From a virus, in IMG/VR virus record IMGVR_UViG_3300031759_000010: DNA of 64,000 nucleotides. The stretch is one strand, 5' to 3'. The notes beneath the pieces were generated by a model. The model saw nothing but the letters and a program-made list of their open reading frames with translations, had not been told where the DNA came from and did no database searches. Below, one piece after another: positions 37,347 through 51,468 of the stretch. Made by a program: the position numbers and the translations under genes. How positions within the stretch are numbered: position 1 is the stretch's first letter; the number at the start of each line of letters is the position of its first letter.

Positions 37347-37823
37347 ATGCGAAACGGCCTCTATGAACTCGTCATCGCTCCAGAAGGATATCCCGGGAAG
37401 CTGTATCGAGGAAGATACTGCTATGAACACCACTTAGTGTGGTGGAAAAACACTGGGGAATTGGTAGTCGAGCCAATGCTCATTCACCACAAGAATGACC
37501 AAAAGCGCGACAATCGTTTTGAAAATTTGGAGAAGAAAGAACGCGCCAAGCATAGTAGCGACCATACCAAAGAAAGAATGGGACCTCCTGGTTACGTTGA
37601 ATTGAAATGCGCTTGGTGTGAAAAAACTTTTCAGATTCTTCGCAGAAATTTTGCTTTCAGAAGGCGATACACGAACAACCACTGCTCCAGATCTTGTGCG
37701 GTCAAGAATCAGTGGCGGTTAGGGTTTGTAAATGTTGGCAAGAAAAAGTTTATTCACGGGAAGCTCTATGGCGAGCATTCCGCTGTTAACGGAAAAGGTG
37801 TGGGTTCGAATCCCTCCCCGTGA
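37347..37823 (+). CDS. HNH homing endonuclease
   Basis: YEHHLVWW...IHHKNDQKRDNRFENL (HNH) plus one CAWC...CSRSC module. The last 70 nt run through tRNA-Asn. Confidence 0.75.
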   Translation: MRNGLYELVIAPEGYPGKLYRGRYCYEHHLVWWKNTGELVVEPMLIHHKNDQKRDNRFENLEKKERAKHSSDHTKERMGPPGYVELKCAWCEKTFQILRRNFAFRRRYTNNHCSRSCAVKNQWRLGFVNVGKKKFIHGKLYGEHSAVNGKGVGSNPSP

Positions 37824-37824
37824 G
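37754..37824 (+). tRNA. tRNA-Asn (GTT)
   Basis: Acceptor TCACGGG/CCCGTGA, D stem GCTC/GAGC, anticodon arm TTCCG-CTGTTAA-CGGAA, T loop TTCGAAT. Confidence 0.75.
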
Positions 37825-37839
37825 CCTTTAGAAGTATGT

Positions 37840-37914
37840 TGCGCGTTGGTGAAATTGGAATCACAGATGGCTCTGAACCATCAGTAGGGGGATCAAAACC
37901 TCCACGCGCAGCCA
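37840..37914 (+). tRNA. tRNA-Gln (CTG)
   Basis: Acceptor TGCGCGT/ACGCGCA (U1:A72, G73), anticodon arm GATGG-CTCTGAA-CCATC, encoded CCA. Confidence 0.75.
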
Positions 37915-37920
37915 AGTTAT

Positions 37921-37994
37921 AGCGGGATGGCCGATTGGTTAGGCACTGGCCTTTGGCACCAGTAAGACAGGTTCAATTCCTGTTCCCGCTGCCA
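37921..37994 (+). tRNA. tRNA-Gln (TTG)
   Basis: Acceptor AGCGGGA/TCCCGCT, G73, anticodon loop CTTTGGC with one C-A mismatch in the stem, T arm ACAGG-TTCAATT-CCTGT, CCA. Confidence 0.6.
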
Positions 37995-37995
37995 T

Positions 37996-38071
37996 GCGGA
38001 CGTAGCTCAATTGGTAGAGCATTGCGCTGCCAGCGCGAAGGTTGCCGGATCATTGCCGGTCGTCCGCTCCA
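37996..38071 (+). tRNA. tRNA-Gly (GCC)
   Basis: Acceptor GCGGACG/CGTCCGC, D arm GCTC-AATTGGTA-GAGC, anticodon loop CTGCCAG, CCA. Confidence 0.8.
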
Positions 38072-38077
38072 GGTTTT

Positions 38078-38151
38078 GCCGGGTTGGTTTAGTGACATAA
38101 CGGCGGGTCCGTACCCCGCAAGCAGGCGTTTGAATCGCCTACCCGGCTCCA
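38078..38151 (+). tRNA. tRNA-Thr (CGT), C at position 33
   Basis: Acceptor GCCGGGT/ACCCGGC, anticodon arm GCGGG-TCCGTAC-CCCGC, T arm AGGCG-TTTGAAT-CGCCT, CCA. Confidence 0.65.
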
Positions 38152-38171
38152 ACTATGATACGATTTAATTT

Positions 38172-38936
38172 ATGAGACTCGTATCAAAGCAGCAGTTTAA
38201 TTCCGCTCGCAGTCGCGACCTTATCGACTTACGTTGCGATTTTTGCGACAGGATTTTCTGGTTACCGAAGCACGAGGCGATGAGGAGAGCAAAACGCGGA
38301 ACAGGAAAAACGTACTGCTCTCCTCTTTGCTCAAATGATTCACAGAGGAGGAATAAGCCAAAGCCTTGCAAGCAGTGCGGAAAAGATTGCCGCAAGATTT
38401 TTTGTTCTCACAGGTGTTCTGCGTTATTCAACAACCCCCTCAAGGCTAACAAGAAGAAAAAGTGCCTTGAGTGTGGAGTAAAGCACTCGAACAAAAAATT
38501 TTGTAGCCATGGATGCAATCAGAAAAACAAAGAGAAAGCGGTGCTCGTAGAATGGCGATCCGGAGCGCGTAGTGGGTTAACAAAGAATGGCTTTCTTTGT
38601 GAAACCGTAAGACGGTACCTTCTTGGGAAATACGACAACAAGTGCTCTAGGTGTGGATGGTGCGAGGTTAACCATAAAAGTGGAAAGGTGCCGGTTCAGA
38701 TCGAGCATATCGACGGGGATTTTCGCAATTGCAGTGAAAGCAATTTGATCGTTTTGTGCCCTAATTGCCATTCTTTAACTCCGACATACATGTCGCTTAA
38801 TCGGGGCAATGGAAGAGACGTTAACGGAATGAGGCGCAAAAAGGATGCCGGAATAGCTCAACAGGAAGAGCATATCATCGGTAATGATACGACTGGGGTT
38901 CGAGGCCCCATTTCGGCTCCAAGGTTTTTAATGTAA
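38172..38936 (+). CDS. HNH homing endonuclease with three zinc-ribbon modules
   Basis: HIDGDFRNCSESNLIVLCPNCH (HNH). CDFC..CSPLC, CKQC..CSHRC, CLEC..CSHGC. The 3' end runs through tRNA-Thr(GGT). Confidence 0.8.
   Translation: MRLVSKQQFNSARSRDLIDLRCDFCDRIFWLPKHEAMRRAKRGTGKTYCSPLCSNDSQRRNKPKPCKQCGKDCRKIFCSHRCSALFNNPLKANKKKKCLECGVKHSNKKFCSHGCNQKNKEKAVLVEWRSGARSGLTKNGFLCETVRRYLLGKYDNKCSRCGWCEVNHKSGKVPVQIEHIDGDFRNCSESNLIVLCPNCHSLTPTYMSLNRGNGRDVNGMRRKKDAGIAQQEEHIIGNDTTGVRGPISAPRFLM
38847..38921 (+). tRNA. tRNA-Thr (GGT), C at position 33
   Basis: Acceptor GCCGGAA/TTTCGGC, D arm GCTC-AACAGGAA-GAGC, anticodon arm TATCA-TCGGTAA-TGATA, T loop TTCGAGG, CCA. Confidence 0.65.
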
Positions 38937-38942
38937 GTTTTT

Positions 38943-39017
38943 GCCCTGCAAGCATTGCCGTCGATGCACCGGGCCTGTACCCCGGACAATGCCGTTAGAC
39001 TCGGCAGCAGGGCTCCA
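38943..39017 (+). tRNA. tRNA-Thr (TGT), C at position 33
   Basis: Acceptor GCCCTGC/GCAGGGC, D stem GCAT/ATGC, anticodon arm CCGGG-CCTGTAC-CCCGG, T arm TGCCG-TTAGACT-CGGCA, CCA. Confidence 0.6.
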
Positions 39018-39020
39018 AGT

Positions 39021-39100
39021 GTGGCCGTGCCGACTATTGGTATGTCGGGCATGTCTGTGGAACATGTCTCTTGTGGATTCGATTTCCACCGGCCACCCCA
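39021..39100 (+). tRNA. tRNA-His (GTG)
   Basis: Acceptor GTGGCCG/CGGCCAC with C73, anticodon arm CATGT-CTGTGGA-ACATG, T arm GTGGA-TTCGATT-TCCAC, CCA. No encoded G-1. Confidence 0.7.
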
Positions 39101-39107
39101 TTTACGC

Positions 39108-39183
39108 GGGCCCTTAGCTCATTTGGGAGAGCGCCTCGTTTGCACCGAGGAGGCGGTCGGATCGAAGCCGACAGGGTCCACCA
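39108..39183 (+). tRNA. tRNA-Ala (TGC)
   Basis: Acceptor GGGCCCT/AGGGTCC with the G3:U70 identity pair, anticodon arm CCTCG-TTTGCAC-CGAGG, CCA. Confidence 0.85.
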
Positions 39184-39245
39184 GTTTTGCCGATTGAGCT
39201 AGTGCGGTCATAGCAGTGGTTTGATTTTAATGGTATAATGCTTGC

Positions 39246-40250
39246 ATGTTCAGAACTATACCATGTAGTAAATGTGGGACAGAAATAGGGATGAATCGTA
39301 TCAAGACGCATGAACGTCTGTGCGATGGTTTTGGACCTGCCCGCCGCAGGAAAACAGTGATTTTCGAGACCGATGTAGACGGCAAGAAGATTTGTCCAGA
39401 TTGCGGTAAGAAGTGCAGCAAATATGGCGCTGCAACTCACTGGAGGATTGCTCATCGTGGCGATTATGCTGGAAGACCGTTAGGCACTGGGCCAGCAAAA
39501 GGGAAATCTTGGAACAGAGGTCTGACAAAGGAAACGGACGAAAGGATAGCGAGAGCCTGTGCCAATGTCAGTGAAGGAGTAAGGCGATACGTTGCCAACA
39601 TGACCGATGAGGACCGCAAGAAGCGATCTGAAATTGGAAGGAGAAAAAGTCCGACTAAAGGTGGCCCAAGAAAGGGGGCTGGACGTGGTAAAAGTGGGTG
39701 GTATCAAGGATTTTGGTGTGATTCGTCTTGGGAGTTGGCTTGGGTAATACACGCTATCGATCATTCAATTTCTTTCAGCAGAAATACGCTTGGTTATGAA
39801 TATGAGTTTGAGGGTAAGCGATCCAAGTTTTATCCAGACTTTCTTTTGGGTGCTGGAAACCTAGTCGAAGTCAAGGGGTATTTTGACCGACGCAACAATG
39901 CAAAGATAGCAGCAGTTGAAGGATTAACGGTTTTAGGCGAAAAAGAAATAAAGCCGTATTTGTTATATGCGGTTGAAAGGTTTGGTACTGATTTCGTTTC
40001 TGCTGCTTATCAACAACCGCCAGAATACAGATGTTGTGATTGTGGCACTGCCGTAACAAATAATGCTCCGCGCTGTGCAAGATGTGCTGGATTGAAGAGT
40101 GCGAAGTATAAGATTCAATGGCCGACAAATGAACAGTTGATCGATATGATTGGTTTAAGTAACCGAAATCAAGTTGCAAAACGGCTAGGGGTATCATTTA
40201 GTGCGATTGCGAAGCGTTTGAAAGTTCATGGACTCGTAGCTCCAATGTAG
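39246..40250 (+). CDS. putative homing endonuclease (NUMOD-like N-terminus, PD-(D/E)XK-like core, C-terminal HTH)
   Basis: SWNRGLTKETD is NUMOD3-like. YPDF...LVEVKG is PD-ExK-like. The last 21 nt overlap tRNA-Phe. Confidence 0.5.
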   Translation: MFRTIPCSKCGTEIGMNRIKTHERLCDGFGPARRRKTVIFETDVDGKKICPDCGKKCSKYGAATHWRIAHRGDYAGRPLGTGPAKGKSWNRGLTKETDERIARACANVSEGVRRYVANMTDEDRKKRSEIGRRKSPTKGGPRKGAGRGKSGWYQGFWCDSSWELAWVIHAIDHSISFSRNTLGYEYEFEGKRSKFYPDFLLGAGNLVEVKGYFDRRNNAKIAAVEGLTVLGEKEIKPYLLYAVERFGTDFVSAAYQQPPEYRCCDCGTAVTNNAPRCARCAGLKSAKYKIQWPTNEQLIDMIGLSNRNQVAKRLGVSFSAIAKRLKVHGLVAPM

Positions 40251-40304
40251 AGCGACACGTTGAAGCCGTGTGCGGTGCTGGTTCAAGTCCAGTCGAGTCC
40301 ACCA
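40230..40304 (+). tRNA. tRNA-Phe (GAA)
   Basis: Acceptor GGACTCG/CGAGTCC, A73, anticodon arm ACACG-TTGAAGC-CGTGT, T loop TTCAAGT, CCA. Confidence 0.8.
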
Positions 40305-40312
40305 TAGTTTAT

Positions 40313-40389
40313 CCGGGCCTAGCCTAGCGGCTTCAGGCACCTGTTTCGGGAACAGGATGAGCGGCGTTCAACTCGCCGGGTCCGGACCA
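40313..40389 (+). tRNA. tRNA-Pro (CGG)
   Basis: Acceptor CCGGGCC/GGTCCGG, anticodon arm CCTGT-TTCGGGA-ACAGG, T arm CGGCG-TTCAACT-CGCCG, CCA. Confidence 0.8.
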
Positions 40390-40395
40390 GCTTAA

Positions 40396-40472
40396 CCGTG
40401 TGTGGCGCAGCCAGGAAGCGCACCTGATTTGGGATCAGGGGGTCATCAGTTCGAATCTGATCACGCGGACCA
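40396..40472 (+). tRNA. tRNA-Pro (TGG)
   Basis: Acceptor CCGTGTG/CACGCGG, anticodon arm CCTGA-TTTGGGA-TCAGG, T arm ATCAG-TTCGAAT-CTGAT, CCA. Confidence 0.8.
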
Positions 40473-40476
40473 TTGA

Positions 40477-40553
40477 GGGGCTGTAGCTCATCTGGATAGA
40501 GCGCCGGTTTGCGGAACCGGAGGCAGCAAGTTCGAACCTTGCCAGCCCCACCA
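40477..40553 (+). tRNA. tRNA-Arg (GCG)
   Basis: Acceptor GGGGCTG/CAGCCCC, D arm GCTC-ATCTGGATA-GAGC, anticodon arm CCGGT-TTGCGGA-ACCGG, CCA. Confidence 0.75.
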
Positions 40554-40559
40554 TACTTC

Positions 40560-40635
40560 GCACCTGTGGCAGAGTGGATTATGCTCCTGTATTCGAAACA
40601 GGAAGACGCGGGTTCGAATCCTGCCAGGTGCCCCA
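40560..40635 (+). tRNA. tRNA-Arg (TCG)
   Basis: Acceptor GCACCTG/CAGGTGC, anticodon arm CCTGT-ATTCGAA-ACAGG, T arm GCGGG-TTCGAAT-CCTGC, CCA. Confidence 0.75.
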
Positions 40636-40682
40636 GGTTACCAAAGTTCTCTTGCAATCTTCCCCCAGACCGGCGTTATACT
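40636..40682 (+). promoter_or_regulatory. GGTTACCAAAG motif copy 2 plus sigma70-like promoter inside the tRNA array
   Basis: GGTTACCAAAG-N5-TTGCAA(40652-57)-19 nt-TATACT(40677-82). The 5' end of the CAT tRNA lies 8 nt after the -10 hexamer. Confidence 0.5.
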
Positions 40683-40689
40683 TGTCTCC

Positions 40690-40766
40690 AGCGGATATGG
40701 AGAAAGGGAGTCTCGTCAGCCTCATAAGCTGAATATCGCCGGAGTCGGGGTCCGGATCCGCAACCA
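40690..40766 (+). tRNA. tRNA with CAT anticodon (Met or Ile2-type)
   Basis: D arm GAGA-AAGGGAG-TCTC, anticodon arm TCAGC-CTCATAA-GCTGA, T stem CCGGA/TCCGG, 3' ATCCGCA-A-CCA. The 5' acceptor register is ambiguous (A1-A72 mismatch or one extra nucleotide). Confidence 0.55.
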
Positions 40767-40771
40767 AGTTT

Positions 40772-40845
40772 GGACCATTGTTCTATGGGTATGATGTTCG
40801 GCTGTCTACCGAACAGAGCGAGTTCGAGTCTCGCATGGTCCGCCA
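40772..40845 (+). tRNA. tRNA-Asp (GTC)
   Basis: Acceptor GGACCAT/ATGGTCC, G73, anticodon arm TTCGG-CTGTCTA-CCGAA, T arm GCGAG-TTCGAGT-CTCGC, CCA. The D stem is weak. Confidence 0.6.
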
Positions 40846-41152
40846 ATGTCCGGGCTGGTGTAGGCCTCCTTTCCTCCGCGCCCACCGGAGGGGACAAAGT
40901 GGGCACAAGTTTTGGAGGAACAATGATTCACGCGGAGGATGCCATGACAAGTACATAGTGAAAGGAGACTTGTCATGGGCAATGCACACGCTTCAAGGCA
41001 CCGTCGTGGGCTCGGAAAGCCATGTTCCATCGGTTGCCTTTATTGCGCGATGCGCCCCAAGGATGGGCCACCCGGGAAGCGGCGCAAAAACTACGCCAAC
41101 AAAACTTCCAGGGGCCGCCATGTTCCCCATGGGCGCAACGCAAACCGCCGCA

Positions 41153-41221
41153 AGGGTTAAGCATGTCAACGCTGTAGGGATGTGGTTTCGGACGCGGGTT
41201 CAATTCCCACCGGGTCCACCA
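41153..41221 (+). ncRNA. ssrA: tmRNA acceptor (3') piece: P2 3' strands, T arm, 3' acceptor strand, CCA
   Basis: GTTAAGCATGTCAACGCTGTAGGGATGTGGTTTCGGACGCGGGTTCAATTCCCACCGGGTCCACCA closely parallels the E. coli ssrA 3' end as I remember it. The 5' limit of the piece is not determinable by eye. Confidence 0.6.
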
Positions 41222-41293
41222 GAGAGGGTTGGAAGCTGCTTTAGGACTTACCCCCTTGGAAAAAGTGAGCGGTTAATGTCAACCCTCTCTTGT
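41222..41293 (+). other. intervening segment of the permuted tmRNA locus, closed by a perfect 10-bp stem
   Basis: GAGAGGGTTG (41222-31) pairs with CAACCCTCTC (41280-89). It starts directly after CCA and ends 4 nt before the GGGCCCG 5' end. Confidence 0.6.
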
Positions 41294-41465
41294 GGGCCCG
41301 TCACGGTTTCGACGGGATCAGGGATCTACAGTTTCATGCCGGGATTGATGCTCACCGCAACGAGAATCAAACCATAAGTGCAGCAGCATTTGCGCTCCCG
41401 GTTGCCGCCTAAACAACGGTAACCCGTGGACGGCCGGGTTCCATGTAAAAAAACACCCGGCAAGG
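41294..41465 (+). ncRNA. ssrA: tmRNA coding (5') piece: 5' acceptor strand, D-loop analogue, PK1 region, tag reading frame
   Basis: GGGCCCGTCACGGTTTCGACGGGAT...TTCATGCCGGG is the canonical tmRNA 5' domain. Tag frame 41359-41412 encodes NENQTISAAAFALPVAA then stop. The 3' limit is set arbitrarily before tRNA-Glu. Confidence 0.6.
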
Positions 41466-41469
41466 TTTT

Positions 41470-41546
41470 GGCCCTGTCTGCTAAGTGGATAGGCAACTGG
41501 ACTCTCACTCCGGAAATGACGGGTTCGAATCCCGCCAGGGCTACCA
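41470..41546 (+). tRNA. tRNA-Glu (CTC)
   Basis: Acceptor GGCCCTG/CAGGGCT (G1-U72), anticodon arm CTGGA-CTCTCAC-TCCGG, T loop TTCGAAT, CCA. Confidence 0.7.
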
Positions 41547-41593
41547 AGTTGCATTTGTTTGGGAATTACGTACTTAACTCCCTTGGAGGGTAA

Positions 41594-42067
41594 ATGAGCA
41601 TCGTTCATCAAAGTCAGTTGATGCCAGCCGAGAACAAGTTTCACGTCGGCAATAGCGAAGATGGAAAACATTACTGGATCACTCCGCCTGATCTCTATTC
41701 GGCGCTGGACACAGAGTTTCACTTCGATTTTGACCCATGCCCCTTCCCGCTTCCGGTAGGCTTTGACGGCCTCACTTGCGAATGGGGTAAGTCTAATTAC
41801 GTCAATCCGCCGTTTGGGTCCATCATTCATCAAGGCAAGAAGAAAGGTCCGACCGCTTGGGTCCGTAAGTCCATTGAAGAGCAGCAAAAAGGGAACCTCG
41901 TTGTGCTTGTCTACCCCGTCGATAAATGGGTGCTCATGATGCTCAAGGCTATCGGGACTAAAGTCCGAAACCTTGGCGACGTTCGATGGCTTGCAACTGA
42001 GGACATGTCCATCGGCAAAGGTACTGGAAGGCATATTGCAGCTTTCATTTTGGAGCCGAAACTGTGA
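41594..42067 (+). CDS. DNA N6-adenine methyltransferase, phage Dam (T1-type) family
   Basis: FDFDPCP ... NYVNPPFG (motif IV NPPF) ... VVLVYP. Small single-domain enzyme. Confidence 0.75.
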   Translation: MSIVHQSQLMPAENKFHVGNSEDGKHYWITPPDLYSALDTEFHFDFDPCPFPLPVGFDGLTCEWGKSNYVNPPFGSIIHQGKKKGPTAWVRKSIEEQQKGNLVVLVYPVDKWVLMMLKAIGTKVRNLGDVRWLATEDMSIGKGTGRHIAAFILEPKL

Positions 42068-42100
42068 AAGGGACTCAAGTATATAAGTCCCATTTGTTTT

Positions 42101-42178
42101 GAGATGGCAGGCTGCGTCGGTTTGGCCCACGGTCTTTCACACCGTGCTACGCGGGTTCGACTCCCGTCCATCTCGCCA
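42101..42178 (+). tRNA. tRNA-Glu (TTC)
   Basis: Acceptor GAGATGG/CCATCTC, anticodon arm ACGGT-CTTTCAC-ACCGT, T arm GCGGG-TTCGACT-CCCGT, CCA. Confidence 0.75.
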
Positions 42179-42196
42179 GTTCTATGAGGAGGAATC

Positions 42197-42379
42197 GTGA
42201 AGGTTGCAAGGAGTCACATCGTCGCCGCAATCGAGGTAGCTGATCAGATCAAGAACGGCAAGATTCTTTTTTATCCCAAATACGCCATCAAGGCCAAACG
42301 CTATGCCGGAAAAGACAAATCCACCGGCGAGTTTGGGTGGACGGTATCGGTTGTTCCTCTCCGGCCAGTCAAAGCATAA
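42197..42379 (+). CDS. hypothetical small protein (60 aa)
   Basis: Track ORF. Stop lies 2 nt before the GGQ-protein ATG. Confidence 0.4.
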   Translation: MKVARSHIVAAIEVADQIKNGKILFYPKYAIKAKRYAGKDKSTGEFGWTVSVVPLRPVKA

Positions 42380-42381
42380 AA

Positions 42382-42714
42382 ATGAAAACCCTCTTGTTTT
42401 CCCTTACTTCAAAAGATTTCGAGTTTCAGACTTTTTGCACTGGCGGCAACGGCGGCCAACACCGCAACGCAAAGCAAAACGGTGTGCGGTGTATCCATAC
42501 AGCCTCTGGGGCCAGGGCCGAACACCGCGACGGACGCGATCAGCGGAAGAATAAGGAAGAAGCCTTCCGCAAATGCGCCGAGACCCCTCAGTTTAAGGCT
42601 TGGCACAGGGCTGAAACTATGCGCCGCATGGGCCTCATGAAGAGCGTTGACCGGGCCGTTGATGAGGCTATGAGGCCAGAAAACATCAAGGTCGAGATTT
42701 TGAATGGGATCTAA
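42382..42714 (+). CDS. GGQ-motif release-factor-domain protein (ArfB/RF-1-domain-like peptidyl-tRNA hydrolase)
   Basis: TGGNGGQHRNAKQNGVRCIHTASG...RDQRKNKEEA matches the class I release factor PTH domain with the catalytic GGQ. Only 110 aa, so no codon-recognition domains. Confidence 0.8.
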   Translation: MKTLLFSLTSKDFEFQTFCTGGNGGQHRNAKQNGVRCIHTASGARAEHRDGRDQRKNKEEAFRKCAETPQFKAWHRAETMRRMGLMKSVDRAVDEAMRPENIKVEILNGI

Positions 42715-42738
42715 AGAGGACTTCGAGGAGTCTGATTG

Positions 42739-42812
42739 TGGAGCGGCCGAGGAGATTCAAACTCCCGTCATCGGATTGGAAGTCCGAGGCCCTATCATTG
42801 GACGACGGCCGC
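42739..42812 (-). tRNA. tRNA-Gly (TCC)
   Basis: Minus strand: acceptor GCGGCCG/CGGCCGC, anticodon arm TCGGA-CTTCCAA-TCCGA, T arm GGGAG-TTTGAAT-CTCCT, CCA. Confidence 0.8.
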
Positions 42813-42817
42813 AAATT

Positions 42818-42855
42818 TGGTGCCGGATGCTGGGCTTGAACCAGCTACCTCTCGC
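42818..42855 (-). tRNA. 3' half of a split tRNA gene (anticodon-stem 3' strand, variable loop, T arm, acceptor 3' strand, CCA)
   Basis: Minus strand: GCGAG-AGGTA-GCTGG-TTCAAGC-CCAGC-ATCCGGC-A-CCA. The acceptor strand is perfectly complementary to GCCGGAT at 43424-43430. Confidence 0.6.
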
Positions 42856-43320
42856 TTATATCGTATCCAATTGATCAACCGATTTTAATTCATAGTCTGA
42901 TGCCAATCTAACTCCTCGCACTTGATTGTTGGCTGACGGCTTGAATCTCAAGGCAATATCCCTTTTCAATTGTCTCAATAAATCTGGTCCGAATAGATAG
43001 AACTTCCGATCATTCGGTTCGTAAGCTACGAGTGCATCTACTTGATTTTCGTAGCTACGATGAACAACTTTTCCGTGGTCAGTTGTATTATTTACAAATG
43101 ATACCGAGAATGTCTTACCATTATTACGCCATGTTGTTTTTACCTGCACTCGTAGCAGTCGTTTTCCAGTGTCTACGATCATATCGTAGCGGTGGCGGTC
43201 TCCAAGTGGAACAGATACCGCTAATCCTTGTTCAACACACCATAGAGCAAACCTCATCTCAGATATGTCGCCTGTCTGCTTGGTGTTAATTTTTGTTGTC
43301 GCGTTAATCATCGAACTCAC
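42856..43320 (-). CDS. PD-(D/E)XK endonuclease, I-Ssp6803I-like (PDDEXK_5-like)
   Basis: GDISEMRFALWCVEQGLAVSVPLGDRHRYDMIVD...LLRVQVKTT follows the E...D...QVK pattern of that family as I remember it. Sits between the two halves of a tRNA gene. Confidence 0.55.
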   Translation of the reverse strand: MSSMINATTKINTKQTGDISEMRFALWCVEQGLAVSVPLGDRHRYDMIVDTGKRLLRVQVKTTWRNNGKTFSVSFVNNTTDHGKVVHRSYENQVDALVAYEPNDRKFYLFGPDLLRQLKRDIALRFKPSANNQVRGVRLASDYELKSVDQLDTI

Positions 43321-43395
43321 AACCTTTCCATTATCGATGGAATCCTATTCCAAATTTATCTACGCTACAATCATATAACACATTACTCCTGTATA

Positions 43396-43430
43396 CCGAA
43401 CGCTCTAAGCCATCGGTGAGCTAATCCGGC
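43396..43430 (-). tRNA. 5' half of the same split tRNA gene (acceptor 5' strand, D arm, anticodon-stem 5' strand)
   Basis: Minus strand: GCCGGAT-TA-GCTC-ACCGATGGCTTA-GAGC-G-TTCGG, followed by TATACAGG... and the endonuclease ORF. Confidence 0.6.
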
Positions 43431-43435
43431 AAACC

Positions 43436-43511
43436 TGGTGCGGAGTGAGGGACTCGAACCCCCGACGACCTGCTTGTAAGGCAGACGATCTAGCCGCTGA
43501 TCAAACTCCGC
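43436..43511 (-). tRNA. tRNA-Val (TAC)
   Basis: Acceptor GCGGAGT/ACTCCGC, D arm GATC-AGCGGCTA-GATC, anticodon arm TCTGC-CTTACAA-GCAGG, T loop TTCGAGT, CCA. Confidence 0.8.
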
Positions 43512-43584
43512 AAAATACCCTAAACAACTTATAACTTAGGCGTATACATCAAAAAACCGGAACACGCCCAAGATACAAAGCAAC

Positions 43585-43661
43585 TGGAGCTGCCGACAGG
43601 ACTCGAACCTGCCTTATCCACCTACGGTGTTCGCCTTCGGAGGGCGACCCGGTACGGCAGC
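43585..43661 (-). tRNA. atypical tRNA-like gene, Arg (CCG)-type anticodon hairpin, no recognisable D arm
   Basis: Acceptor GCTGCCG/CGGCAGC, T arm GCAGG-TTCGAGT-CCTGT and CCA are canonical. The only good internal hairpin, TCGCC-CTCCGAA-GGCGA, starts 7 nt after the acceptor and is followed by an 18-nt segment containing the mini-hairpin CACC-GTA-GGTG. Confidence 0.4.
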
Positions 43662-43665
43662 AAAC

Positions 43666-43742
43666 TGGTGGTCGCAGGAAGAGTCGAACTTCCGGCCTAC
43701 GGTTTAGGAAACCATCGCTCTATCCGTCTGAGCTATGCGACC
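43666..43742 (-). tRNA. tRNA-Arg (CCT)
   Basis: Acceptor GGTCGCA/TGCGACC, D arm GCTC-AGACGGATA-GAGC, anticodon arm ATGGT-TTCCTAA-ACCGT, T arm GGAAG-TTCGACT-CTTCC, CCA. Confidence 0.8.
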
Positions 43743-43759
43743 AAATCTGGTGATCCTAA

Positions 43760-43834
43760 TGGAAGACCTATCCCGGATCGAACGGGAATCATTCGCTTAG
43801 AAGGCGAGGCTCTATCCCTTTGAGCTATAGGTCC
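43760..43834 (-). tRNA. tRNA-Arg (TCT)
   Basis: Acceptor GGACCTA/TAGGTCT, D arm GCTC-AAAGGGATA-GAGC, anticodon hairpin TCGC-CTTCTAA-GCGA (4 bp plus a C-A mismatch), T arm TCCCG-TTCGATC-CGGGA, CCA. Confidence 0.65.
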
Positions 43835-43836
43835 AT

Positions 43837-43915
43837 TGGTGAGACGGGTGAGATTTGAACTCACGTTTATGACGACTTAAAAGGTCGTTGCCGAACCAGA
43901 CTAGGCGACCGTCTC
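43837..43915 (-). tRNA. tRNA-Lys (TTT)
   Basis: Acceptor GAGACGG/CCGTCTC, anticodon arm ACGAC-CTTTTAA-GTCGT, T arm GTGAG-TTCAAAT-CTCAC, CCA. Confidence 0.75.
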
Positions 43916-44500
43916 TCGTAAATTCTTGGTATATTCTCTGTTTGCTCTTGTACAACCATCGCAATGCCGAAGACCGCGACGAGCTTCTGCTAAGTATCCC
44001 GACCTTGTTCCGTGCTGAATTTCAAGCAGTTTTCTCGGACCACCGTTGTTCTTCTTTTGATATTTACGAACGCAATCCTTGCAGTCAGATGCTAAACCAT
44101 CCCAACGGCTTTTGTTCTTGCTGAACATCGCAACTGGCTGAGGCTTTTTGCAGGTTGAGCATCGTTTTGTCCCGTCTTCTTGGAGAGCGTTTCTGTACCT
44201 GCCGGATTGTTCCGCGCAATTCTGCATCTGTGAAACAATCCTTATGTTTCCAAGTTCGTAGTGACCAGAATCGCCAATCCTTGCCGCGTTAGGTGTAACG
44301 TCAGGATTCTCTTTTTGAAACTTCTCGTATTCAGGGATGGCCCATTTCAGCCATTCATCCCACGTCATTCGTAATTCCACATTCGCGTAAGAGGGGTTCT
44401 TCCCATCTTTATTAAGACACCTTTTCAACATCCCATAATACGCTGCTTTTGCTCGATAAAGAGGGGTGCGATGAATCTCCGGGCTTTTGTAGGCAATCAT
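43901..44500 (-). CDS. putative HNH_3-type homing endonuclease
   Basis: GDSGHYELGNIRIVSQMQN resembles the HNH_3 core. Cys pairs CSTC, CKDC, CDGC. The last 15 nt overlap the 5' end of tRNA-Lys(TTT). Confidence 0.5.
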   Translation of the reverse strand: MIAYKSPEIHRTPLYRAKAAYYGMLKRCLNKDGKNPSYANVELRMTWDEWLKWAIPEYEKFQKENPDVTPNAARIGDSGHYELGNIRIVSQMQNCAEQSGRYRNALQEDGTKRCSTCKKPQPVAMFSKNKSRWDGLASDCKDCVRKYQKKNNGGPRKLLEIQHGTRSGYLAEARRGLRHCDGCTRANREYTKNLRETVA

Positions 44501-44535
44501 GTCTTAAACTTAAAATAATCTTGCCTACGTGTCAA

Positions 44536-44611
44536 TGGTGGATGCGGAAGGATTTGAACCTTCATCTTCACGGGTAAGGGCCGTGCATACTAGCCGTTGT
44601 ACTACGCATCC
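44536..44611 (-). tRNA. tRNA-Lys (CTT), C at position 33
   Basis: Acceptor GGATGCG/CGCATCC, anticodon arm CACGG-CCCTTAC-CCGTG, T arm GAAGG-TTCAAAT-CCTTC, CCA. Confidence 0.7.
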
Positions 44612-44613
44612 AC

Positions 44614-44708
44614 TGGGGCCGGAAGAGGGAATCGAACCCGTCTCGCATCGGTAATCTACCGACAACTACAAGGCTTATAAGACCTCGCGGCAACCTATGC
44701 TTTCCGGC
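44614..44708 (-). tRNA. atypical 95-nt tRNA-like gene, anticodon loop CTTATAA (TAT), long extra arm
   Basis: Perfect acceptor GCCGGAA/TTCCGGC, C73, CCA, and T loop GGGTTCGATTCCC. Anticodon hairpin GAGGT-CTTATAA-GCCTT, extendable to 7 bp. Extra arm TCGGTA-GAT-TACCGA. The D stem and outer T stem do not pair canonically. Confidence 0.4.
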
Positions 44709-44822
44709 AAAACTGCTGTTGTGCGATCCGGCCCTTACATCGGAAAAGATGCAGGATATTCCGGTTACTCGCTAGTCAGGCTCTCGCCCTTCTGCTGCCG
44801 CGTTTCACCCGCACAACAACCT

Positions 44823-44895
44823 TGGTGCCGCACGGGGGAAACGATCCCCTACTCCGTCTGCTTTATGAGGGCAGCGTTCCTCTTGGATATGCGGC
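44823..44895 (-). tRNA. tRNA with CAT anticodon (Met or Ile2-type)
   Basis: Acceptor GCCGCAT/GTGCGGC, anticodon arm CTGCC-CTCATAA-AGCAG (one C-A mismatch), T loop ATCGTTT, CCA. Short D region. Confidence 0.55.
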
Positions 44896-44900
44896 GAGTC

Positions 44901-44971
44901 TGGCGCGGGACCGGAGAGTCGAACTCCGCACGGCGGCGTTTGGAGTGCTGCCTGATCTCGGATCGTCCCGC
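44901..44971 (-). tRNA. tRNA-Trp (CCA), compact
   Basis: Acceptor GCGGGAC/GTCCCGC, G73, T arm CGGAG-TTCGACT-CTCCG, anticodon loop CTCCAAA in a stem with two A-C mismatches. Small D arm. Confidence 0.5.
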
Positions 44972-44987
44972 ATTTTCAAAGAGCATT

Positions 44988-45011
44988 AAAAAACCCCCAC
45001 CTGAGTGGAGG
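44988..45011 (-). terminator. intrinsic terminator inside the minus-strand tRNA array
   Basis: Minus-strand sense CCTCCAC-TCAG-GTGGGGG (7-bp stem), followed by TTTTTT. Confidence 0.6.
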
Positions 45012-45138
45012 TCTGGTGGTGCCAACACGCAGACCCCTAAGACACGACTCCCCAAATGACCCGCTTGGTCATCCTGGTTATCGGTTTGGTCTTGGTCATC
45101 ATGTTGTTAATCTTCCCATGGATGGGCTGCGATGTCAA

Positions 45139-45229
45139 TGGTGCGTTCGGCAGGATTCGAACCTGCAGCGTCCTCAAAGAGGATTCCGGGTTACAGCCGG
45201 ACAGTGTCCACCGTCTCACCAGCGAACGC
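45139..45229 (-). tRNA. tRNA-Tyr (GTA), type II
   Basis: Acceptor GCGTTCG/CGAACGC, A73, anticodon arm TCCGG-CTGTAAC-CCGGA, long variable arm CCTC-TTTG-GAGG, T arm GCAGG-TTCGAAT-CCTGC, CCA. Confidence 0.8.
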
Positions 45230-45235
45230 ACAATA

Positions 45236-45322
45236 TGGTGGAGGGTAATGGTATCCATCCATCATCCCTTACGGGAGCCACGGTGTTCAGGACCGTTTGC
45301 CTCAGCATCGGCGGTACCCTCC
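45236..45322 (-). tRNA. tRNA-Ser (TGA), type II, C at position 33
   Basis: Acceptor GGAGGGT/ACCCTCC, anticodon arm ACGGT-CCTGAAC-ACCGT, variable arm TCCC-GTAA-GGGA, T arm GATGG-ATGGATA-CCATT, CCA. Confidence 0.65.
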
Positions 45323-45327
45323 AAACT

Positions 45328-45414
45328 TGGCGGTAGCGGCGTGAGTCCAACACGCAACGGCTTTCACCGTGTCCGCTTTCGAGGCGGGTGGGCTTGGCAA
45401 TGCCCAACGCTACC
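45328..45414 (-). tRNA. tRNA-Ser (CGA), type II
   Basis: Acceptor GGTAGCG/CGCTACC, G73, D stem GGGC/GCCC, anticodon loop CTCGAAA, variable arm ACGG-TGAAAG-CCGT, T arm GCGTG-TTGGACT-CACGC, CCA. Confidence 0.75.
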
Positions 45415-45415
45415 G

Positions 45416-45501
45416 TGGAGGAAGGCAGGTCACTCGAAGACCAGTCCTTACGGACCTCATCGCTTTCCAAGCGAGACCACAACCTCAGTGGTTTACCTTC
45501 C
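45416..45501 (-). tRNA. tRNA-Ser (GGA), type II
   Basis: Acceptor GGAAGGT/GCCTTCC, anticodon loop TTGGAAA, variable arm GTCC-GTAA-GGAC, T loop TTCGAGT, CCA. Confidence 0.7.
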
Positions 45502-45506
45502 CAAAC

Positions 45507-45593
45507 TGGCGGAGAGCCGAGGTCTTGATCCCCACTCCCGAAGGAGCCATCGGTTTAGCAAACCGCGCCCATGCCCTGACGGGTTGACTCTCC
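45507..45593 (-). tRNA. tRNA-Ser (GCT), type II
   Basis: Acceptor GGAGAGT/GCTCTCC, G73, anticodon loop TTGCTAA, variable arm CTCC-TTCG-GGAG, CCA. Confidence 0.7.
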
Positions 45594-45658
45594 AAAATAT
45601 CTACTGCATCGACATATCACCAAAACATGTCGATTTTCTGCCCATCTTTCGACGTATT

Positions 45659-45739
45659 TGGTGCCGCACGTCAGAATCGAACTGACAAACAATCAACAGT
45701 TTTTGAAACTGTCCGCTTTACCTATTTGCGTAGTGCGGC
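45659..45739 (-). tRNA. tRNA-Leu (CAA)
   Basis: Acceptor GCCGCAC/GTGCGGC, A73, anticodon arm ACAGT-TTCAAAA-ACTGT, T arm GTCAG-TTCGATT-CTGAC, CCA. Confidence 0.75.
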
Positions 45740-45746
45740 ACAATTT

Positions 45747-45838
45747 TGGTAGGCGTGGTGGGGGTCGAACCCACAGGTGACCGTTTAGGGTACGGCAGTT
45801 TCTAAGACTGCTGGCTGATCCAATTCGCCGTCACGCCC
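45747..45838 (-). tRNA. tRNA-Leu (TAG), type II
   Basis: Acceptor GGGCGTG/CACGCCT, A73, anticodon arm GCAGT-CTTAGAA-ACTGC, long variable region, T arm GTGGG-TTCGACC-CCCAC, CCA. Confidence 0.75.
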
Positions 45839-45914
45839 ACGTTTTTGTTTTTTCTTCCACTCGTTAATAGTAAAATTGTGAGCTTTCTTGCAAGCATCAC
45901 ATCTGCACCCACGT

Positions 45915-45988
45915 TGGAGAGCGCGAGAGGAATCGGACCTCCGTAAACGGCTTTGCAGGCCGCTGCATGACCACTCTGCCACGCGCTC
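45915..45988 (-). tRNA. tRNA-Cys (GCA)
   Basis: Acceptor GAGCGCG/CGCGCTC with U73, anticodon arm GCGGC-CTGCAAA-GCCGT, T arm GGAGG-TCCGATT-CCTCT, CCA. Confidence 0.8.
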
Positions 45989-45989
45989 G

Positions 45990-46064
45990 TGTGGGAACCG
46001 GGAGTCGAACCCGGAGACAACGGTTTTTAAGACCGTCCGCTCGATCCATTCGGCGTGTTCCCAC
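45990..46064 (-). tRNA. tRNA-Leu (TAA), short variable loop, no encoded CCA
   Basis: Acceptor GTGGGAA/TTCCCAC, A73, anticodon arm ACGGT-CTTAAAA-ACCGT, T arm CCGGG-TTCGACT-CCCGG. Confidence 0.7.
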
Positions 46065-51391: not shown

Positions 51392-51468
51392 TGCCGAAAC
51401 CCCCCCATGGGGGTCCGCCGGAAATAGCCTACCGGCGCTGATAAGGCAGGCTAGAGAGCAGGGAATCA

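Follow-up and report, generated by a model that had tools for sequence, protein, structure and literature searches.

The experimental paradigm of the two-piece transfer-messenger RNA (tmRNA) is the tmRNA of Caulobacter crescentus, reportedly described by Keiler, Shapiro and Williams in 2000, in which processing of a permuted precursor yields two pieces, acceptor and coding, that are base-paired with each other. The tag encoded by the C. crescentus tmRNA ends in VAA. Here we describe a locus on a 64,000-nucleotide (nt) stretch of DNA from an uncultivated phage (IMG/VR record IMGVR_UViG_3300031759_000010), referred to below as the window, in which positions 41155-41465 on the plus strand are, judged from the nucleotide sequence and its relatives, a circularly permuted, two-piece-type tmRNA (ssrA) gene. 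The C. crescentus gene differs from it in being chromosomal, in belonging to the alpha lineage, and in its pseudoknot content and break point.

Two-piece tmRNAs are known from phages as well, including the OM43 phage Melnitz, pelagiphages and cyanophages (PMC9004378), and Buchholz et al. (2022) found 53 of 133 unique phage tmRNAs to be two-piece forms, mostly marine (PMC9004378). Like the window gene, these are permuted ssrA genes of lytic-type phages detected with ARAGORN, and a role in ribosome rescue or proteome recycling is presumed for both. They differ in that most of them are marine and belong to the alpha or cyano type, some being linked to a glutamine riboswitch (PMC9004378), whereas the window gene belongs to a soil/peat clade, lies in an island of 28 transfer RNA (tRNA) genes and has no blastn match to GenBank phages. 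Catalogues of phage tmRNAs date back to at least 2014 (PMC4131195); those of the Bxz1-like mycobacteriophages and of Bacillus phage G resemble the window gene in lying beside many tRNAs in a large phage genome, but are one-piece and of standard gene order (PMC4131195). Huge phages carry tmRNAs, SmpB and release factors (PMC7162821), and the 2025 tmRNA database, which is the source of the Rfam family RF04321, holds 79 phage sequences (PMC11915505). The kind of gene described here is already documented in phages; what is added is a soil-phage lineage with tags ending in ...LP[MV]AA.

Regarding the lineage-specific Rfam models, the best one was RF01850 (beta_tmRNA), only the best model of the tRNA clan being reported. 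The beta-type RNAs share with the window gene the break point, an acceptor piece starting ...GCAUG, helix P2, the T arm, the acceptor stem, the hairpin of the first pseudoknot (PK1), a single pseudoknot or hairpin after the tag, and a 10-codon tag ending GCC GCC UAA. In the window, by contrast, the PK1 sequence is distinct, the tag reads AAAFALPVAA instead of the beta-type AND..FALAA, and the promoter-like 5' region and terminator hairpin of the model are replaced by a protein gene and a tRNA gene.

ARAGORN reported one tmRNA in the window, flagged as permuted and with the tag AAAFALPVAA, and the general permuted model RF04321 matched positions 41161-41412 over its full length (model positions 1-213) with 89.4 bits (E = 7e-16; gathering threshold 47 bits). 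The T arm, the 3' acceptor strand and CCA (ending at 41221) precede the 5' acceptor strand (G1 = 41294), P2, PK1 and the tag. Of the features by which membership of RF04321 is recognized, the score, the permuted order, the alanine-identity acceptor, the T arm and D-loop analogue, P2 and the tag frame were found at the locus. The parts assigned to the gene, together with the tRNA gene that bounds it, are as follows.

41155-41221, plus strand: acceptor piece, holding the 3' strands of P2, the T arm, the 3' acceptor strand, the discriminator A41218 and CCA (41219-21)
41194-41210, plus strand: T arm, with stem 41194-98/41206-10 and loop TTCAATT
41211-41217, plus strand: 3' acceptor strand CGGGTCC, whose partner is 41294-41300; U41215 is the U70 to G3
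41222-41293, plus strand: intervening segment of 72 nt, with a 10-bp stem (41222-31/41280-89) followed by a TTGT linker
41294-41465, plus strand: coding piece, in the order 5' acceptor strand, D-loop analogue GGTTTCGAC, P2 5' strands, PK1, tag frame, post-tag pseudoknot
41340-41370, plus strand: pseudoknot PK1, with P3 (41340-42/41355-57, 3 bp) and P4 (41345-49/41366-70, 5 bp)
41380-41412, plus strand: tag frame from ARAGORN and Rfam, with resume codon GCA, peptide AAAFALPVAA and stop TAA (41410-12)
41425-41461, plus strand: H-type pseudoknot after the tag, with S1 (41425-30/41440-45), S2 (41433-39/41455-61) and an A-rich loop 3
41470-41546, plus strand: tRNA-Glu(CUC) gene found by ARAGORN and Rfam, directly 3' of the tmRNA gene

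The 5' end of the acceptor piece is placed at 41155 from the onset of homology, which is the same among all members of the clade described below, the Rfam match itself starting at 41161; the 3' end of the coding piece is approximate and bounded by the tRNA-Glu gene. An earlier interpretation of the letters alone (the sequence-only reading) had proposed a permuted two-piece tmRNA in a phage and had named ARAGORN in permuted mode and Rfam covariance models as checks; both returned the gene, and covariation among its relatives agrees with them. The structural elements on which that proposal was built are all in place: the T arm, 3' acceptor strand and CCA at 41191-41221; the 5' acceptor strand GGGCCCG at 41294-41300, downstream of CCA; the 7-bp acceptor stem with G3:U70 (G41296:U41215); the P2 pairings 41161-65/41335-39 and 41172-77/41326-31; and the perfect 10-bp stem that closes the intervening segment. 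Taken together, these elements are far beyond chance. The alanine identity elements G3:U70, discriminator A73 and encoded CCA are all present in the window.

Relatives were sought at two levels. A generic pattern for permuted tmRNAs yielded at least 120 IMG/VR contigs with such genes, mostly with 10-residue tags of the form ANDxxFALAA, but an alignment with the window over the whole gene was obtained for one contig only (L082; 71% identity, 41156-41463). A 20-mer of PK1 common to the window and L082 led to a clade of 12 further distinct sequences, found on viral contigs and on contigs from soil, peat or bog metagenomes. A syntenic relative, L255, was found via the open reading frame (ORF) upstream of the gene and has the same order of tRNA-Asp, small ORF and permuted tmRNA as the window. 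To date the clade is known exclusively from viral or metagenome contigs of soil, peat and bog. When GTDB genomes were scanned with the PK1 20-mer, nine matches were obtained, none of them with tmRNA features, so that no species representative carries the 20-mer in a tmRNA context and no host lineage emerged; these nine matches are chance or unrelated ones.

Covariation was assessed on an alignment of 13 distinct sequences that comprised the acceptor piece and the coding piece up to the resume codon, with the Rfam consensus as the structure. Of all pair cells, 99.2% were paired, compared with 35-46% when the partners were slid by 1-3 columns; compensatory changes occurred at 21 of the 37 pairs, and none of 500 shuffles reached any of these measures. 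The acceptor helix was 100% paired with four compensatory pairs, and its G3:U pair was present in 13/13 sequences. In the T arm, compensatory changes were found among the relatives in all five pairs. Helices 1-3, which make up P2, were 98.7-100% paired, with compensatory changes at 12 of 17 pairs; in both of the pairings named above the two strands change together, GCATG/CATGC becoming GCACG/CGTGC or GCCTG/CAGGC, and CTGTAG/CTACAG becoming CTGTAC/GTACAG. The two helices of PK1 can form but are near-invariant in the clade and show no covariation, in part because PK1 had served as the search pattern.

The post-tag region was treated separately, because the MAFFT alignment was out of register with the pseudoknot, by a pseudoknot search in each sequence combined with shuffling. 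The score of the H-type pseudoknot in the window was reached by none of 100 shuffles, and the relatives have the same fold in different sequences; its S2 hairpin is covered by the RF01850 model. In a minimum free energy (MFE) fold of the precursor, the acceptor stem, the stem of the intervening segment, P2 and the post-tag hairpin all form.

The intervening segment varies widely within the clade. In L082 it is closed by ACAAGCCCTTG/CAAGGGCTTGT, in L255 by GGAGAGCAA/TTGCTTTCC and in L221 by AAGCCCC/GGGGCTT; L221/L246, like L082 and L255, have a closing stem of unrelated sequence. In some members CCA and G1 are separated by only 2-4 nt, in one by 111 nt; therefore the segment is regarded as a dispensable spacer. 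(At about 4290-4300 of L255 the acceptor end reads ACCG, not ACCA; therefore CCA is not fully encoded there and would need to be added post-transcriptionally.)

The resume codon GCA at 41380 is agreed on by ARAGORN, the Rfam alignment and the relatives. The tag has ten residues, starts at an alanine codon and has a hydrophobic C-terminus ending in ...AA before the stop. The sequence-only reading had the right frame, the ...FALPVAA end and the TAA stop, but had begun the tag at 41359 and thereby made it 17 residues long. The extra residues, NENQTIS, come from positions 41359-79 (AACGAGAATCAAAC...), which are the 3' strand of PK1 and are conserved as nucleotides in every member of the clade. Tags of the relatives include AEDFALPMAA (L226), ADSFELPVAA (L250), ADFDALPMAA (L255) and ATAEPFALPMAA; the ending ...LP[MV]AA is common to them, and tag lengths in the clade are 10-28 residues.

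On this basis the region 41155-41465 is probably a working permuted tmRNA gene of an uncultivated phage, transcribed together with tRNAs and cut into two pieces; we put the probability of this reading at about 0.82. The tmRNA region would be transcribed together with the neighboring tRNA genes and the small upstream gene; the locus showed neither a convincing promoter nor a convincing terminator of its own. RNase P would cut 5' of G41294 and 5' of tRNA-Glu, the latter site setting the 3' limit of the tmRNA precursor. An endonuclease and 3' trimming would expose CCA41221, and the stem-closed 72-nt segment would be discarded. The functional RNA must consist of two pieces because charging requires a free CCA 3' end; these would be an acceptor piece of 61-67 nt and a coding piece of about 172 nt, joined via the 7-bp acceptor stem and P2, and the earlier expectation of about 70 and about 170 nt fits these computed sizes. 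Charging with alanine would depend on G3:U70 and A73. The charged complex, with host SmpB and EF-Tu, would enter stalled ribosomes, where translation would resume at GCA 41380, (A)AAAFALPVAA would be added as a degron of the Val-Ala-Ala type, and the ribosome would be released at TAA. The presumable benefit for the phage, to which its tRNAs and a nearby protein with a GGQ domain may also contribute, is that ribosomes are kept free during infection.

Several observations weigh against this reading. The end-to-end alignment with RF01850 (41121-41479, all 331 model positions) scored only 56.7 bits, below the gathering threshold of 84 of that family, and none of the three lineage-specific models reached its threshold, so that the comparison with lineage models turned out favorably for the architecture and unfavorably for the score; among the relatives, L255 reached 57.7 bits over the full model and L251 54.4 bits over model positions 76-170 only. 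The locus is, by test, a member of the general permuted family, with a beta-type architecture that stays below the beta threshold. The T stem contains a mismatch, C41195.A41209, which is flagged in the Rfam alignment of the window and, in the 13-sequence alignment, is shared by no relative; the D-loop analogue GGUUUCGAC and the T arm are nevertheless recognizable as those of a permuted tmRNA despite this single C.A mismatch. In an MFE co-fold of the two separate pieces, which the sequence-only reading had expected to form both helices, P2 formed and the acceptor stem did not. This is judged to be a limit of MFE folding for tRNA-like domains and is discounted because the covariance model and the covariation support the acceptor stem. 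Finally, no match to SmpB was found in the 64-kb window, in a weak tblastn search with an E. coli query sequence; therefore host SmpB would be used, and the function would depend on it.

One alternative is that the tmRNA gene, once acquired from a host or from another phage, is a passenger in decay that no longer works in this genome. The T-stem mismatch, being unique to the window, would fit such decay, as would the lack of a visible promoter or terminator at a locus whose relatives L082, L221 and L250 end the gene with terminator hairpins, and the existence of otherwise related loci (L254, L256) that have no tmRNA. All other helices, however, are intact, as are G3:U70, A73, CCA and GGTTTCGAC; the tag frame is uninterrupted and ends in a proper stop, both pseudoknots are preserved, and the tRNA array supplies a setting for transcription and RNase P processing. 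We consider decay unlikely, and more so an action of the RNA mainly against the host, either by competing for SmpB or by redirecting tagged proteins through an ...LPVAA instead of an ...ALAA tag. The tags of the clade do differ from the ANDxxFALAA tags of most other permuted tmRNAs on viral contigs, and phage DS6A has an RNA with a tRNA-like domain only, of a type reported to inhibit tmRNA (PMC4131195, PMC11915505). Against such a role stands the tag frame, which is complete and conserved and has the Ala-Ala C-terminus typical of degrons, and the nearby rescue-type protein with a GGQ domain suggests that rescue capacity is added and not blocked.

The sequence-only reading had gone further for the region just upstream, proposing a tandem duplication caught in the act, in which copy 1 (41008-41221) had kept the 3' domain and a degenerate in-line 5' domain (41008-41152) and copy 2 the 5' domain. 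The supposed 5' domain lies within a protein gene, which has a leader of its own.

40975-41160, plus strand: gene for a small basic protein of 61 residues with a C-x3-C-x2-C motif and an invariant NYANKTSRGRH; not part of the tmRNA
40923-40978, plus strand: leader of this gene, with an upstream ORF (uORF) at 40923-58 and a hairpin (40942-52/40968-78)

The ATG of the 61-residue ORF is preceded at 7 nt by the Shine-Dalgarno sequence GAAAGGAG, and its TAA stop abuts the 5' end of the tmRNA. Homologues with 70-87% identity occur on three other long phage-like contigs, so that the ORF recurs within the tRNA arrays of four such contigs. Nucleotide differences from the three homologues at codon positions 1/2/3 numbered 9/5/37, 9/12/31 and 13/10/38; from this excess at third positions it follows that the ORF is under purifying selection at the protein level. 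In L254 and L256 a tRNA-Trp or tRNA-Val gene comes next after the ORF, and there is no tmRNA; therefore the ORF exists independently of the tmRNA. The 61-residue protein had no match in Pfam, NCBIfam, PHROGs or the PDB sequences.

The features that had been taken for RNA parts at 41008-41152 (GGGCTCG, CCCCAAGG and GCGCAAAAACTACGCCAAC) are present as strings, but at chance level, and are codons of this conserved gene. GGGCTCG (41008-14) encodes Gly-Leu-Gly and reads GGACTTG, GGCCGCG and GGACTTG in the homologues, and the supposed resume context consists of codons of the invariant NYANK motif. When 41008-41152 was compared with the coding piece of the window by Smith-Waterman alignment, the score was 17 against a shuffle mean of 16.7 and was equalled or exceeded by 449 of 1000 shuffles; the coding pieces of the relatives likewise showed no similarity to it. 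With the true 5' domain cut away, RF00023 gave only a 5'-truncated match, which covered model positions 82-374, scored 40 bits (threshold 47) and had low posterior probability upstream of 41150; neither an acceptor nor a D-loop analogue was recognized at 41008.

The relatives, at least 13 in number, are all permuted already, though at most about 71% identical and with quite different tags and spacers; therefore the permutation is old and long precedes this genome. A duplication in progress is accordingly the least probable of the alternatives. In its favor, pairing of GGGCTCG with CGGGTCC is possible and would include a G3:U, and L221 and L246 have this heptamer as their true 5' acceptor strand. 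A short direct repeat, GCAAGG(G)TT, flanks the permuted gene, one copy immediately preceding the acceptor piece and the other immediately following the coding piece, which is in line with an ancient duplication at the origin of the clade. Against these points stand the selected codons, the gene without a tmRNA in L254 and L256, the lack of conservation of the heptamer in the homologues, the absence of any similarity or RF00023 5' domain, the onset of homology at 41155 and the permuted order of every relative. The claim of a duplication intermediate is refuted, and the locus gives no snapshot of how permuted tmRNA genes arise.

In the window, the two copies of the direct repeat lie at 41147-41160 (GCAAGGGTT|AAGCATG) and 41459-41469 (GGCAAGGTT|TT), the upstream copy doubling as C-terminal codons of the 61-residue ORF. 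L218 has the repeat as well (CATTTTAAGT| and CATTTAAGT|), and so has L249. It could be the footprint of an ancient duplication or a shared processing site.

Regarding the leader of the 61-residue gene, the uORF has 11 codons (MIHAEDAMTST) and its own Shine-Dalgarno sequence. In the hairpin of 11 bp the loop contains the main Shine-Dalgarno sequence and the stem contains the ATG; the hairpin is conserved in L254, L255 and L256 with eight invariant and two covarying pairs. The arrangement looks like one of translational coupling or control.

A different element was observed upstream of the tmRNA in several relatives (L082, L201/L202, L219, L221/L246, L223, L250 and L251/L239), at a distance of 33-48 nt or about 160 nt. 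It consists, in this order, of a short hairpin with a 7-nt loop, the invariant TGGTGGAGG, a GC-rich hairpin and CCCC(C)AA, and is absent from the window. TGGTGGAGG is the reverse complement of the tmRNA 3' end CCTCCACCA, and the other strand of the element reads GGGGG-N17-25-CCTCCACCA, resembling a G3:U minihelix. An Rfam search of this element of the relatives gave no match.

The phage nature of the window is indicated by genes for a portal protein, a large terminase, a DnaB-type helicase and a replication initiator; its G+C content is about 54%. Nucleotide searches of GenBank phages (blastn) with the tmRNA locus and also with a 7-kb stretch gave no match, and the large terminase showed at most 27.5% identity to GenBank phage proteins. 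The phage is a member of an uncultivated lineage. The tRNA island around the tmRNA gene (37754-46064, 28 tRNA genes) is divided into one block on the plus strand (37754-42178) and one on the minus strand (42739-46064); HNH-like and PD-(D/E)XK nuclease-like ORFs are scattered among the tRNAs. A type II hammerhead ribozyme match (Rfam RF02276; 41.9 bits, threshold 37) was observed elsewhere in the window, at 51392-51455 on the plus strand.

A Dam-like methyltransferase gene (41594-42067) within the island has relatives with 59-83% identity in 80 viral contigs. It was rejected as a marker of the tmRNA locus, since none of the 80 viral loci fetched through these relatives contained a tmRNA.

One further gene of the island bears on the biology of the tmRNA.

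42382-42714, plus strand: protein of 110 residues that consists of an RF-1 (GGQ) domain only (PF00472, 43.5 bits, threshold 35; phrog_3122)

This gene lies 1 kb downstream of the tmRNA gene, and an orthologue with 67% identity is present in L254, which has no tmRNA. The protein may be a ribosome-rescue factor similar to ArfB or PrfH, which would make it a possible second ribosome-rescue function in the tRNA island. The arrangement suggests that the island bundles tRNAs with ribosome-rescue functions.

The locus provides an example of a two-piece tmRNA, backed by covariation, from a soil-phage lineage without cultured relatives. That the gene travels in tRNA islands, next to a protein with a GGQ domain, is useful for the annotation of phage translation modules and bears on ideas of how phages keep ribosomes available in infection. 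More tentatively, this may be a tmRNA lineage that is kept in phages, with its own ...LP[MV]AA tag family, and that forms with the GGQ-domain protein and the 28 tRNAs a portable module for ribosome rescue and translational autonomy; if so, the module might act against host defences that work by cleaving tRNAs or mRNAs.

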